From assembly GCF_056712565.1 (NCBI RefSeq), contig NZ_CM160072.1: a stretch of 64,000 nucleotides of DNA. The stretch is one strand, 5' to 3'. Both the position numbers and the translations under genes were made by a program. The notes below the pieces were generated by a model. The model did not search any database. It was not told the origin of the DNA and saw nothing but the letters and a program-made list of their open reading frames with translations. Positions within the stretch are counted from its first letter, which is position 1. The number at the start of each line of letters is the position of its first letter. Shown here one piece after another: positions 43,364 through 46,520 of this stretch.

Positions 43364-45769
43364 ATGTCCTTAAAAGGTCTTCGCTTTACGCTGGAGGTTG
43401 ACGGCCAGGAGCCGGACACCTTTGCAGTGGTGAGCTTCCGGTTAATCCAGAACCAGTCTTATCCGTTTGTGATGAGTGTGGATGTCGCCAGCGATTCTTT
43501 TATGCAGACGGCGGAGATGCTGCTGGAGAAGAACGCAACGCTGACTATCTGGCAGGGTGTCATCCCGCTGCGTTATGTCACAGGCGTGGTGGCAGGGTTT
43601 GGTATGCAGGAGAACAACGGCTGGCAGATGCGTTATCACCTGCGTATTGAGCCGCCGTTATGGCGGTGCGGGCTGCGGCGGAACTTCCGTATCTTCCAGC
43701 AGCAGGATATCCGGACGATATCGGCCACATTACTGAACGAGAACGGCGTCACGGAGTGGACGCCGCTGTTTTATGAGGACCATCCGGCGCGGGAATTCTG
43801 TGTCCAGTACGGGGAAAGCGACCTGGCGTTTCTGGCGCGGCTGTGGGCGGAGGAGGGGATTTTCTTCTTTGAGCGGTTTGCGGCGGACAGTCCGGAGCAG
43901 AAGCTGACGCTGTGCGACGATGTGGCGGGGCTGTCACAGGCGGGGGAGCTTCCGTTTAACCCGGACACATCGGCAGGAGCGGAGACGGAGTGTGTCAGTA
44001 TGTTCCGTTATGAGGCGCATGTCCGCCCGTCATCGGTGCAGAGCCAGGATTACACGTTTAAGGTGCCGGACTGGCCGGGGATGTATGAGCAGCAGGGTGA
44101 GAGCCTGAACGGACAGCTTGAACAGTATGAAATATTTGATTATCCGGGAAGGTACAAGGATGAACAGCACGGCAAGGATTTCACGCTGTACCGGATGGAG
44201 AGCCTGCGCAGTGATGCGGAAAAGGCCACAGGGCAGAGTAATTCGCCGAAGCTGTGGCCGGGGACGTGGTTTACGCTGACGGGGCATCCGCAGAAGATGC
44301 TGAACCGTGAATGGCAGGTGGTACAGAGCATTCTGTCAGGAGACCAGCCGCAGGCGCTTCACGGCAGCCAGGGGAGAGGAACCACGCTGGGAAATCAGTT
44401 AGAGGTGATACCGGCGGACCGGACGTGGCGTCCACGGCTGCAAAGCAAACCGAAGGTGGACGGGCCACAGAGCGCCATTGTCACCGGGCCTGCGGGAGAG
44501 GAAATCTTCTGTGATGAACATGGCCGGGTACGGGTGAAGTTTCACTGGGACCGTTATCACGGGATGACGGAGGAGAGTTCGTGCTGGGTGCGTGTGTCGC
44601 AGGCGTGGGCGGGGCCGGGATTTGGTAATCTGGCGATACCGCGGGTGGGCCAGGAGGTGATTGTTGATTTTCTGAACGGGGACCCGGACCAGCCGCTGGT
44701 CATGGGCCGGACGTACCATGAGGACAACCGTTCGCCGGGGGACCTGCCGGGAACGAAGACGCAGATGACGATACGGTCGAAGACCTATAAAGGAAGCGGT
44801 TTTAATGAGTTGCGCTTTGAGGATGCGACGGATAAGGAACAGGTCTATATCCACGCGCAGAAGAACATGGACACGGAGGTACTTAACGACCGGACGACGG
44901 ATGTGAAACATGACCATACGGAGACCATCGGGAACGACCAGAAGATAACGGTGGTGAAGGGGCAGACGGTTCAGGTCGGGACCAGAAAAGAAGGGGGCCA
45001 CGACCAGAGTATCACGGTGGCGAACGACCGGTGCATCACGGTACGTAATGACCAGACGCTGCAGGTGACGAATGACCGGACGGTGAGCGTGAGTAATGAT
45101 GACGGCCTGTACGTCAGAAATGACCGTAAAGTGACGGTGGAAGGGAAGCAGGAGCATAAGACGACGGGGAACCATGTCAGCCTGGTGGAGGGAAAGCACA
45201 GCCTGGTGGTGAAGGGGGACCTGGCGAGGAAGGTGAGTGGCGCGCTGGGGATAAAGGTCGACGGGGATATCGTGCTGGAGAGCAGCAGCCGGATAAGCCT
45301 GAAGGTGGGTGGCTCGTTTGTGGTCATCCATTCAGGGGGCGTGGACATCGTCGGGCCGAAAATCAGTCTCAATAGCGGCGGTAGTCCGGGGACGCCGGTG
45401 CCGGCGCTGCAACCGACGGTGCTGAAGACACTGGGGGATGAGAAGAGTGGTGATGGCAGTGATTCCGGAGAAGAAAATGAAGACTCTGGAGGGAACTGCG
45501 TGACCGGAAGTGGTGGTGATGATCGAGGTGACGATGAGGATGAACCTGAAAAATATACTCTCCAGTTCCATTTTACAGACGATGACGGGATACCGTATTC
45601 AGAAACCCGCTACATTGCCTTCTTTGAGGATGGCACGCAGACCCACGGAGAAACGGATGAAGAGGGGTATACAGAGCGTTTTTTTGTATCTAGCAAACAT
45701 GAAATTAAAGTGAAGTTGCTATTTGCGAATGATGATTTTCTCTCAATGGAAGGACACTATGGACGATAA
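43364..45769 (+). CDS. vgrG: type VI secretion spike protein VgrG with acidic linker and C-terminal extension domain
   Basis: 801 aa ORF; VgrG-like N-terminus (MSLKGLRFTLEVDGQEPDTFAVVSFRL...), gp5-like beta-helix octapeptide repeats (VTNDRTVSVSNDDGLYVRNDRKVTVEGK...), then a Gly/Asp/Glu-rich linker and about 70 aa C-terminal domain. Confidence 0.9.
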   Translation: MSLKGLRFTLEVDGQEPDTFAVVSFRLIQNQSYPFVMSVDVASDSFMQTAEMLLEKNATLTIWQGVIPLRYVTGVVAGFGMQENNGWQMRYHLRIEPPLWRCGLRRNFRIFQQQDIRTISATLLNENGVTEWTPLFYEDHPAREFCVQYGESDLAFLARLWAEEGIFFFERFAADSPEQKLTLCDDVAGLSQAGELPFNPDTSAGAETECVSMFRYEAHVRPSSVQSQDYTFKVPDWPGMYEQQGESLNGQLEQYEIFDYPGRYKDEQHGKDFTLYRMESLRSDAEKATGQSNSPKLWPGTWFTLTGHPQKMLNREWQVVQSILSGDQPQALHGSQGRGTTLGNQLEVIPADRTWRPRLQSKPKVDGPQSAIVTGPAGEEIFCDEHGRVRVKFHWDRYHGMTEESSCWVRVSQAWAGPGFGNLAIPRVGQEVIVDFLNGDPDQPLVMGRTYHEDNRSPGDLPGTKTQMTIRSKTYKGSGFNELRFEDATDKEQVYIHAQKNMDTEVLNDRTTDVKHDHTETIGNDQKITVVKGQTVQVGTRKEGGHDQSITVANDRCITVRNDQTLQVTNDRTVSVSNDDGLYVRNDRKVTVEGKQEHKTTGNHVSLVEGKHSLVVKGDLARKVSGALGIKVDGDIVLESSSRISLKVGGSFVVIHSGGVDIVGPKISLNSGGSPGTPVPALQPTVLKTLGDEKSGDGSDSGEENEDSGGNCVTGSGGDDRGDDEDEPEKYTLQFHFTDDDGIPYSETRYIAFFEDGTQTHGETDEEGYTERFFVSSKHEIKVKLLFANDDFLSMEGHYGR

Positions 45770-46520
45770 TAATCAAACTTCTGGACAACCAAAGCCAGAG
45801 CCAGAAGAATGTGTGAAAGAGCAAAAAATAACAGATCATTTTAAAATAATGATTGATAAGGCTCGTAAGGCACAAAAGTTGGTTTTGATAAAAAGAGCAG
45901 ATGATCTTTTGAGATGGGGAGCACAGGAGGAATATGATTTCAGTAAGATCTTTGGTGTTAAAGGAAATAAGGAGGTTAATATAAGAAAATATGGACATAA
46001 TACAGGTAGGCGCATGAATGCTAGATTTCTTATGATGGATGGTGTGAGAAGATTAATGATTATAGCTAATGATTTAACAATGAGCAGTTTTATAAATTAT
46101 ACAGGTTGTAATGAATTTGCAGCATTCGTCAGCCCAAGTAAGGATATGCCCTATATAATTAACATAGGCGCAAAATTTGAGTATAGAGATGGCAAAAAAA
46201 ATCCAGTAACGGGAAAGGATTCTCATGTTGCTACTTTATGTCATGAAATGTCTCATATTCAGTGGTATTATGGGGATAATAAAAAAGGTGGTATGTGGTC
46301 ACAGGATTATACAACTACTGATAAATATTCAACGTGCAAAGAGGATGAAGTTTCATATGACGAACATATCCGTATTGCAACTAAACTGATCTCTAAACAA
46401 AAAGATCAAATATTTGAGAATGCATATAACATAGAAAGATATTTTGAAATAAGATTAATTGAAAGTGAGATAGACTCGATTGATGATGAAATATTAAGCA
46501 ATTCAGTTAAGAAAAAATAG
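45759..46520 (+). CDS. putative T6SS cargo toxin with HExxH zinc-metallopeptidase-like motif (family unassigned)
   Basis: AT-rich ORF in track 45723..46520; probable ATG at about 45759 (AGGA RBS) overlaps the vgrG stop; contains TLCHEMSHIQWYYGD (HExxH); no signal peptide; directly downstream of and co-oriented with vgrG. Confidence 0.55.
   Translation: MDDNNQTSGQPKPEPEECVKEQKITDHFKIMIDKARKAQKLVLIKRADDLLRWGAQEEYDFSKIFGVKGNKEVNIRKYGHNTGRRMNARFLMMDGVRRLMIIANDLTMSSFINYTGCNEFAAFVSPSKDMPYIINIGAKFEYRDGKKNPVTGKDSHVATLCHEMSHIQWYYGDNKKGGMWSQDYTTTDKYSTCKEDEVSYDEHIRIATKLISKQKDQIFENAYNIERYFEIRLIESEIDSIDDEILSNSVKKK

Follow-up and report, generated by a model that had tools for sequence, protein, structure and literature searches.

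A probable aspzincin (M35-like) zinc metallopeptidase as vgrG-linked antibacterial type VI cargo effector in Escherichia coli phylogroup B2

The DNA analyzed here, a stretch of 64,000 nucleotides from contig NZ_CM160072.1 of NCBI RefSeq assembly GCF_056712565.1 (hereafter the window), belongs to E. coli phylogroup B2 and is 100% identical to the corresponding DNA of APEC O1, S88 and ATCC 11775. On its plus strand it carries, at the yncG-yddH site, a type VI secretion system (T6SS) island that is present in about one tenth of complete E. coli genomes, including APEC O1, S88 and the type strain. The first gene of the island encodes a PAAR spike-tip protein of 94 amino acids (43061..43345, +), recognized by NCBIfam NF033420 (T6SS_PAAR_dom, E 5.5e-47) in agreement with RefSeq, and is followed by vgrG (43364..45769, +), encoding a T6SS spike protein of 801 amino acids with matches to TIGR03361 (E 9e-181) and to the Pfam domains Phage_GPD, Phage_base_V and Gp5_trimer_C; the scores of both identifications lie over the curated cut-offs. 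The 3' end of vgrG is AT-rich and encodes a C-terminal TTR-like, putatively cargo-binding domain (residues ~727-801; 45542..45766, +), the beta core of which comprises residues ~731-786. Directly behind it lies the gene under study (45759..46520, +), coding for a protein of 253 amino acids that family profile, structure model and RefSeq assign as an aspzincin (M35-like) zinc metallopeptidase, and then a gene for a predicted cognate immunity protein (46573..47292, +). A fragment of an ISAs1 transposase gene (47467..47610, +), known from the RefSeq annotation of the identical region of APEC O1, marks the distal edge of the island.

The effector gene is an open reading frame of 253 codons, its frame being open on the plus strand from TTG 45723 to the stop codon TAG 46518-46520. 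As read from the sequence, translation starts at ATG 45759-45761, spaced 4 nt from the Shine-Dalgarno-like GGAAGGA (45748..45754, +) within the final codons of vgrG, and the two genes overlap by 11 nt (vgrG stop codon TAA at 45767-45769). The RefSeq start is identical (WP_000342574.1, 253 amino acids), and the equivalent methionine opens all 35 aligned homologues. Nine independent loci, from E. coli, Salmonella, Buttiauxella, Franconibacter, Rahnella and one metagenome, were compared: the overlap with vgrG (8-14 nt) together with a Shine-Dalgarno-like purine stretch occurs in eight of them, the remaining one having a 1-nt gap, and a purine-rich stretch 5' of the effector start is found in the other eight loci as well as in the window. 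A scan for promoters and terminators within the operon revealed none above shuffled background. Translation of the effector is probably coupled to that of vgrG, which may provide for stoichiometric loading. The preliminary description, made from the sequence of the window, had proposed an AT-rich frame opening inside the 3' end of vgrG, with an ATG behind AGGA, and a protein with a charged N-terminus and no signal peptide. All of this stands: G+C amounts to 32.4% in the effector gene and to 58.4% in the body of vgrG, the protein carries the N-terminal DDNNQTSGQPKPEPEE and lacks a signal peptide, and residues 1-24, which precede the catalytic domain, are modelled as disordered (pLDDT <50).

Assignment of the protein to a peptidase family started from a zinc-metallopeptidase-like HExxH motif. 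The segment TLCHEMSHIQWYYGD (residues 159-173) contains HEMSH (codons 46242..46256, +), with His162 and His166 as predicted zinc ligands and Glu163 as predicted catalytic base, located within a helix modelled by AF2 at residues 156-165. Searches with the single sequence gave little: no NCBIfam family matched, phmmer against the PDB reached an E value of about 1 only, and the Pfam match to PF14521 (Aspzincin_M35) was sub-threshold (E 0.0047) and covered residues 113-168 only, although two short relatives bear a precomputed PF14521 match. Since these searches were weak, a profile of the effector family had to be built first. Compared with the PDB, this profile detected AsaP1 (E 1.7e-6) and GfMEP, the peptidyl-Lys metalloendopeptidase of Grifola frondosa (E 4e-5), in exact agreement with the solved M35 peptidases across HExxH: HEMSH falls opposite HESSH in GfMEP and opposite the mutated motif in AsaP1. 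The hhalign comparison of the effector family with GfMEP (95.6% probability) paired Asp183 with Asp130, which is a zinc ligand in GfMEP (PMC3268031), and Glu226 with Glu157, which determines the P1'-Lys specificity of that enzyme, a trait of the Lys-N branch of M35 (PMC11985622). Asp183 (codon 46305..46307, +) is thus predicted as the aspzincin third ligand; it lies in GGMWSQD in the window, as compared to a family consensus of GGMGTxD, and the canonical GTxDxxYG is degenerate here (WSQDYTTT), its distal YG not being conserved. Glu226 is part of NAYNIERYF (residues 221-229; 46419..46445, +), which homologue alignment identifies as the counterpart of NADNHEYF in M35 enzymes. Without exception, the 35 sequences carry H162, E163, H166, D183, Y223, N224, E226, Y228 and F229. 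Moreover, the AF2 model of the effector (pLDDT 88.8, pTM 0.85) has the three-dimensional fold of M35, so that profile and model together predict an M35 fold with Asp183 as third ligand. The suggestion that the HExxH motif might be coincidental is contradicted by its invariance and by the M35 profile agreement. The preliminary description saw neither a metzincin extension nor an obvious third ligand of the thermolysin type and left the family unclear; Asp183 and the M35 assignment resolve this. Peptidase_M91 (NleD-like) was considered as another family, but PF14891 stayed below significance (E 0.02) and had no support by profile or structure.

The classical M35 peptidases GfMEP (1g12), AsaP1 (2x3a) and deuterolysin (1eb6) share with the effector the pattern TG-DS...T(L/I)xHExSHF, the Asp third ligand and N-A-x-N-x-E-(x)-Y-F with the counterpart of Glu157, whereas identity is only 18-22%. 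HExxH and the Asp ligand are separated by 17 residues in the effector and by 9 in the classical enzymes; the invariant Tyr223 stands in place of Asp154, the second-shell ligand of His117 in GfMEP (PMC3268031); His162 has an invariant Cys161 in front of it; and the disulfide cysteines of fungal M35 enzymes are absent. Classical M35 enzymes possess both a signal peptide and an inhibitory propeptide, whereas the effector has neither and would leave the cell via the T6SS; in AsaP1, the propeptide places a Lys-like side chain in the S1' pocket. This zymogen trait belongs to the classical enzymes and not to the definition of the catalytic family. The VgrG2b C-terminal metallopeptidase/PA0261 of Pseudomonas aeruginosa (6h56) is a parallel in its mode of action: it is an HExxH toxin fused to a VgrG with a TTR domain, is toxic in the periplasm only and has a small downstream immunity gene, but it is a gluzincin of the DUF4157 type with Glu983 as third ligand (PMC6899460), whereas the effector described here is a predicted aspzincin encoded separately. 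Membership of the effector in the VgrG2b/DUF4157 group was rejected on Pfam, profile and structure comparison; it lacks the DUF4157 signature and a Glu third ligand ~44 residues after HExxH.

A protein of this fold might act in vivo without being a protease, either as a secreted, zinc-binding (zincophore-like) protein comparable to Candida Pra1 or as a toxin that binds a periplasmic target instead of cutting it. For the related VgrG2b, no substrate was ever obtained (PMC6899460), and the papers examined on the M35-like T6SS family report neither mutants of the catalytic site nor zinc measurements, a substrate or secretion dependent on the T6SS. Yet Glu163 and Glu226, the latter being the counterpart of a specificity residue, are invariant in all 35 sequences, and a dedicated immunity protein would not be expected for a metal scavenger, which makes a non-proteolytic role barely credible.

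The effector gene is located directly 3' of vgrG in all nine loci, and a C-terminal TTR-like domain of VgrG accompanies the effector family in each of them, across both VgrG types represented. This domain matches the Tle1-binding TTR domain of VgrG1 of EAEC (6sjl) and shows a weak similarity to the TTR portion of 6h56 (E 0.38). The EAEC VgrG1-Tle1 pair (6sjl/6sk0) is a precedent for direct cargo loading via a TTR domain; there, the cargo is a phospholipase, whereas the effector of the window is a predicted peptidase, for which we infer that it rides on the spike via the TTR-like domain of its own VgrG. Together with the effector and immunity genes, the region for this domain makes up a single AT-rich cassette that has been grafted onto two VgrG types.

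The gene downstream of the effector encodes 239 amino acids in the window, as compared to 273 amino acids in the intact form of P0073, and begins with a Sec signal peptide (MLQAIKKIIIMTIVNIIFFYSFQSTA/DE). A homologous reading frame with three invariant cysteines follows the effector in nine of nine loci, and the seven homologues with a complete N-terminus possess a Sec signal peptide with a cleavage site of the A-x-A type. Comparison of this protein with Pfam and NCBIfam identified no family, DUF4352 (E 0.015) being Pfam noise only. On these grounds, the exported protein is the predicted cognate immunity protein, located in the compartment in which the toxin would act. The supposition that the reading frame encodes a T6SS metallopeptidase effector was thereby strengthened, resting on the linkage to vgrG, the aspzincin active site and an immunity gene with signal peptide.

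The supposition that the effector is new was not: the gene bears the name "peptidase M35" in RefSeq, and its product is already known. It is 100% identical over 253 residues to the protein of strain BCE049 (FQU84_RS13640, WP_000342575.1), the 'M35-peptidase' of module 5, which poisoned E. coli only if a PelB leader directed it to the periplasm (PMC7904677). The BCE049 island occupies the same yncG-yddH site and has the same order of PAAR, vgrG and effector; it differs from the window by an additional PAAR-vgrG-DUF2169 module upstream, by encoding the 263-residue instead of the 253-residue form of the effector, and by an immunity gene that is broken differently in its assembly. Immunity, secretion or catalytic-mutant results for the BCE049 M35-peptidase are not part of that report (PMC7904677). 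Deletion of the whole island did not affect the virulence of BCE049 in mice (PMC7904677); this mouse experiment is not a test of antibacterial function. These data also bear on whether the protein is mainly an anti-host, trans-kingdom protease delivered by the ExPEC T6SS into eukaryotic cells, similar to the AsaP1 exotoxin of Aeromonas salmonicida or to fungal M35 virulence proteases. B2 strains of the extraintestinal pathogenic kind typically carry the island, as would fit such a role. We nevertheless regard it as very improbable, given that E. coli is killed by the identical protein when this is in the periplasm, that mouse survival did not change upon deletion of the island in BCE049, that the gene for an exported immunity protein accompanies the effector in all nine loci and that homologues occur in environmental Enterobacterales (Buttiauxella, Rahnella). 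The aspzincin clade as a whole is restricted to Enterobacterales, with 48 representatives among 1.84 billion clustered proteins.

Furthermore, a relative has been characterized in E. coli PAR: M35-PAR (AKO63_2955) is toxic in the periplasm when expressed from pET22b, is neutralized by the downstream AKO63_2956, and binds VgrG only via a fragment with DUF2345 and the C-terminus (PMC10673891). M35-PAR and the effector of the window show 30% identity (E 1e-33) and have all invariant residues in common. In both, the start codon overlaps the vgrG gene directly upstream and a homologous immunity gene follows. M35-PAR has a long insertion in its N-terminal subdomain and its gene is part of the main T6SS cluster at metV, where it follows the gene of a DUF2345-type VgrG that is split by a frameshift. 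Equating the M35-PAR family with VgrG2b as 'M35' (PMC10673891) was not supported by the present comparisons. We found no paper linking the term aspzincin with type VI secretion. Work by Ma et al. on 'vgrG islands' and VT modules (2018, BBA Gen Subj) probably lists this effector module.

Both genes of the module end in homopolymer frameshifts in the window. In the effector gene, an A6 run (46512..46517, +), one A fewer than in the 263-residue allele according to the BCE049 alignment, creates the stop codon TAG 46518-46520; the 263-residue allele has A7 and reads on as ...KKKIAELEKALLH, a tail that matches the tail of the Salmonella homologue, and the longer form is supported by P0001 (263 amino acids) and the annotation of MS 57-2. 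The Lys/Glu-rich C-terminus noticed in the preliminary description is real in that the protein ends in KKK, but it is the product of this truncated allele. In the immunity gene, the tract reads A7 (47273-47279), CAC and T5 (47283-47287), as compared to A8/T6 in the intact allele; the out-of-frame remainder behind the frameshift site (47273..47392, +) encodes the conserved C-terminus ...IDGDNLKLPY. The 34 residues lost include I264 and G266, which are invariant across five homologues. Several length variants of the immunity tract occur among 629 E. coli genomes, and Nissle 1917, in which the end of the immunity gene is present, has a further variant and an effector frame that appears disrupted. 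Due to the frameshifts at both 3' ends, the module may be weakened or decaying in this lineage, and it might even be a relic that no longer aids competition and is kept by recent descent only, a reading to which the loss of the last 10 residues of the effector, the shortened immunity protein, the tract variants including that of Nissle 1917 and the ISAs1 fragment flanking the island would all contribute. Against this, the catalytic core (residues ~25-232) is intact with all invariant residues kept, the toxic BCE049 construct differs from the protein of the window only in having the 10-residue tail behind its 253 residues, and many complete B2 genomes, among them separate assemblies of the type strain, have the truncated allele with 100% identity. 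An intact core is carried together with a truncated immunity gene at no obvious cost, which suggests either continued protection by the 239-residue immunity form or tight silencing of the operon. We therefore consider a mere relic unlikely.

Our preferred interpretation, held with considerable confidence, is that the product of the gene is a zinc endopeptidase of the aspzincin (M35-like) class which serves as an antibacterial cargo effector of the T6SS. Following this, we propose that the PAAR-vgrG-effector-immunity operon would yield the effector coupled to the translation of vgrG, that the effector would be fired into the periplasm of the target cell and act there, and that His162, His166 and Asp183 would hold zinc, with Glu163 as catalytic base, for cleavage of an envelope substrate, while sister cells would be shielded by the exported immunity protein encoded downstream. 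Toxicity would accordingly be caused by zinc-dependent catalysis, and export of the effector would be T6SS-dependent. By analogy with GfMEP, the retained Glu226 suggests a Lys-like P1' residue, candidates being meso-DAP of the stem peptide or Lys58 of Braun lipoprotein. A more far-reaching and distinctly speculative idea, for which we hold out little expectation, is that the clade may be retuned to such a Lys-like envelope residue, cutting either the gamma-D-Glu-meso-DAP bond of peptidoglycan or the Arg57-Lys58 bond by which Braun lipoprotein is tethered to it. If true, T6SS effectors would thereby gain a way of killing that has not been described for any of them. In addition, the A/T tracts at the 3' ends of effector and immunity gene could be a slippage-based switch modulating the pair.

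The value of the locus as a discovery is small, as an annotation exists, toxicity was already assayed for the identical protein, and work on a relative has covered its immunity protein and VgrG as well. That the cassette travels across two T6SS classes clearly exemplifies modular effector exchange and predicts which VgrG loads which cargo. Given that the island occurs in about every tenth complete E. coli genome, the frameshift variants may matter for studies of strain competition. The useful outcome is the predicted classification of the effector as an aspzincin with Asp183 and not as a gluzincin of the VgrG2b type, which names E163, D183 and E226 as the residues concerned and suggests envelope substrates containing Lys or DAP.

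The open reading frame at 45759-46520 (+) is a real and correctly delimited T6SS effector gene. Its ATG at 45759 is situated 4 nt past GGAAGGA and 11 nt inside vgrG, of which the TAA stop codon occupies 45767-45769; the same start is used in RefSeq, and the equivalent methionine is the first residue in all aligned homologues. G+C content is 58% across the main part of vgrG and declines stepwise to 42% over the final 240 nt of that gene, to 32% in the effector ORF and to 27% in the gene that follows. The preliminary description of an AT-rich ORF with a start overlapping the end of vgrG therefore stands as written, and the operon structure and the coupling to vgrG are evident from the sequence. 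Translational coupling may also set the stoichiometry of the two products.

The effector had been proposed as new, but it is already annotated and already tested. RefSeq product names are 'peptidase M35' or 'M35 family metalloendopeptidase', and the island that carries the gene recurs at an identical position in E. coli BCE049 (CP042250), where an additional vgrG module precedes it. The BCE049 'M35-peptidase of module 5' shows 100% identity to the window effector over all 253 residues. This protein needed a fused PelB leader to inhibit growth of E. coli, and deletion of the island left mouse virulence unchanged (PMC7904677). M35-PAR (AKO63_2955), characterized from E. coli PAR, showed toxicity when expressed from pET22b, a vector that targets the periplasm; AKO63_2956, encoded downstream, neutralizes M35-PAR, which binds VgrG only via the C-terminal VgrG fragment (PMC10673891). 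The M35-PAR locus was found in NZ_CP012379; since M35-PAR shares 99% identity with the family hit P0024 and 30% (E 1e-33) with the window effector, the two proteins are members of one family. In E. coli PAR (L017, NZ_CP012379.1 2965770-2974429) and at a further locus (L013), the main T6SS cluster at metV contains two tandem vgrG-aspzincin-immunity modules with paralogues of 246 aa and 262 aa. A frameshift splits the second vgrG, and PMC10673891 handled the resulting pieces as two genes, 'VgrG' and 'DUF2345'.

Single-sequence searches with the effector yielded weak matches in Pfam (Aspzincin_M35, E 0.0047; Peptidase_M91, E 0.02) and in the PDB (the Aeromonas salmonicida exotoxin AsaP1, E 1.2), and none in NCBIfam. 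The family is small: clustering at 90% identity gives 30 groups, and a search of 1.84 billion clustered proteins gave only 48 representatives at E ≤ 1e-3, all from Enterobacterales wherever the source names the organism. In the alignment of 35 members, A122, I136, F140, G152, S155, C161, H162, E163, H166, D183, Y223, N224, E226, Y228 and F229 are invariant, and the consensus HExSHF...GGMGTxD...NAYNIERYF includes the aspzincin signature GTxD, degenerate in the window (WSQD). The family profile matches AsaP1 at E 1.7e-6 and GfMEP, the peptidyl-Lys metalloendopeptidase of Grifola, at E 4e-5, and hhalign against the verified GfMEP sequence (95.6% probability) pairs D183 with D130, Y223 with D154 and E226 with E157. 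In GfMEP, zinc is bound by His117, His121 and Asp130, and Asp154 hydrogen-bonds His117 (PMC3268031). The AlphaFold2 model from the family alignment is of high confidence (pLDDT 88.8, pTM 0.85), with disorder confined to residues 1-24. Profile and predicted structure show an aspzincin fold and predicted zinc site, and these comparisons supply what the preliminary description had missed: Asp183 is the predicted third ligand, and the family, previously called unclear, is that of the aspzincins. Cys161 (codon 46239-46241) immediately precedes the first zinc-binding His and is conserved in 35 of 35 members; the equivalent residue in both GfMEP and AsaP1 is Val. Might Cys161 confer redox or metal sensitivity?

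Eight further loci with family members of 30-63% identity were compared, originating from main T6SS clusters and orphan islands of E. coli, from Salmonella, Buttiauxella, Franconibacter and Rahnella, and from a metagenome. Including the window, the effector gene is located directly 3' of vgrG in nine of nine loci: eight have an overlap of 8-14 nt, and the ninth has a 1-nt gap. In all nine, the end of vgrG contains a purine-rich ribosome-binding stretch, and G+C collapses within the final 240 nt of that gene. Two VgrG types are represented, Gp5_trimer_C and T6SS_Vgr/DUF2345, and all of the proteins end in a shared domain of roughly 60 residues, (Y/F)xxxFxFxDDxGxPYxxxxYIAxxxDGxxxxGxTDxxGxT, in which 19 positions are invariant across the nine sequences. 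Because this domain is common to both spike types, the predicted unit moving between spikes is one cassette of TTR-like domain, effector and immunity gene. Loading of the effector on the TTR-like domain is the most likely mechanism, to judge from co-inheritance, homology to the Tle1-binding TTR domain of EAEC VgrG1 (6sjl) and co-immunoprecipitation in PAR, where the binding fragment contains the same VgrG C-terminus; the domain itself would then bind the effector.

The ORF downstream of the effector has homologues in all nine loci (24-43% identity). Their complete N-termini comprise a Sec signal peptide with an A-x-A-like end, and three cysteines and the motifs LDY, NxxYAF, VNxxWF and IDG are kept; searches of Pfam and NCBIfam returned no family. 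Export of the immunity protein fits the published periplasm-only toxicity. We propose that the effector would be exported by the T6SS, carried on the spike by the VgrG TTR-like domain, would act in the periplasm, as published for the identical protein, would be toxic through its catalysis, and would be neutralized by the exported downstream protein, as reported for the 30%-identical relative. In GfMEP, E157D allows cleavage before Arg as well as Lys, hence Glu157 governs P1' specificity (PMC11985622); as its counterpart Glu226 is invariant, a Lys-like P1' preference is a reasonable guess. Meso-DAP in the peptidoglycan stem or Lys58 in Braun lipoprotein may be named as speculative substrates.

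The window derives from E. coli of phylogroup B2. Its stretch 42900-47700 is 100% identical in APEC O1, S88, the type strain ATCC 11775 and many more complete genomes, and at least 80% of it is present in 511 of 5,426 complete genomes. The island comprises a PAAR gene (43061-43345), vgrG (43364-45769, 801 aa), the effector ORF and the signal-peptide ORF of 239 codons (46573-47292), with an internal fragment of an ISAs1-family transposase gene (47467-47610) at its distal edge, and is flanked by a frameshifted yncG and by yddH/nhoA. The glutathione S-transferase family gene yncG (41920-42520) is split into two ORFs; in APEC O1, where this region is identical, RefSeq marks it as a frameshifted pseudogene. 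A larger ISAs1 remnant lies between the two vgrG modules of BCE049, and such remnants suggest that IS elements assembled or eroded the island. The stretch preceding the PAAR gene, 42520-43060 (32-41% G+C), may be the island promoter region; several sigma-70-like hexamer pairs occur there (e.g., 42642-42669), in numbers not clearly above shuffled background. Elsewhere in the window, Rfam gathering-level matches identified the RydC sRNA (90.5 bits, 12587-12650, -) and a SECIS_3 selenocysteine insertion element (84.3 bits, 60985-61043, +), the latter probably within fdnG given the narU-yddG-fdnG gene order in the syntenic BCE049 locus.

Homopolymer variation affects both cassette genes. The intact E. 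coli immunity protein has 273 aa (P0073); at 47273-47287, the window reads A7-CAC-T5 as compared to A8-CAC-T6 in P0073-type genes, and therefore the ORF ends at 47292 and the conserved C-terminus (...IDGDNLKLPY) lies in another frame (47213-47392), the 34 conserved C-terminal residues of the protein being out of frame (47273-47392). Among 629 E. coli genomes carrying the region, this tract occurs in at least three lengths. The effector lacks the last 10 residues of the 263-aa allele (cluster P0001; BCE049, MS 57-2) because an A6 run replaces A7 at 46512-46517, creating the TAG at 46518-46520; the Salmonella homologue agrees with the longer tail, ...KKKIAELEKALLH. A possible loss of protection by the 239-aa immunity protein is the main ground for supposing that the module is decaying in the window lineage, which we regard as unlikely; the lost effector tail is outside the catalytic core. 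The same island in Nissle 1917 (L018, NZ_CP171242.1 2590585-2594105) has a further tract variant, an immunity ORF annotated at 251 aa and, at the effector position, an early-ending ORF called 'hypothetical protein', which suggests that the effector is disrupted in this probiotic strain. Taken together, what is added to the known effector is its correct zincin class with a predicted third ligand, a conserved TTR-like putative loading domain within a cassette structure, and two homopolymer truncations.
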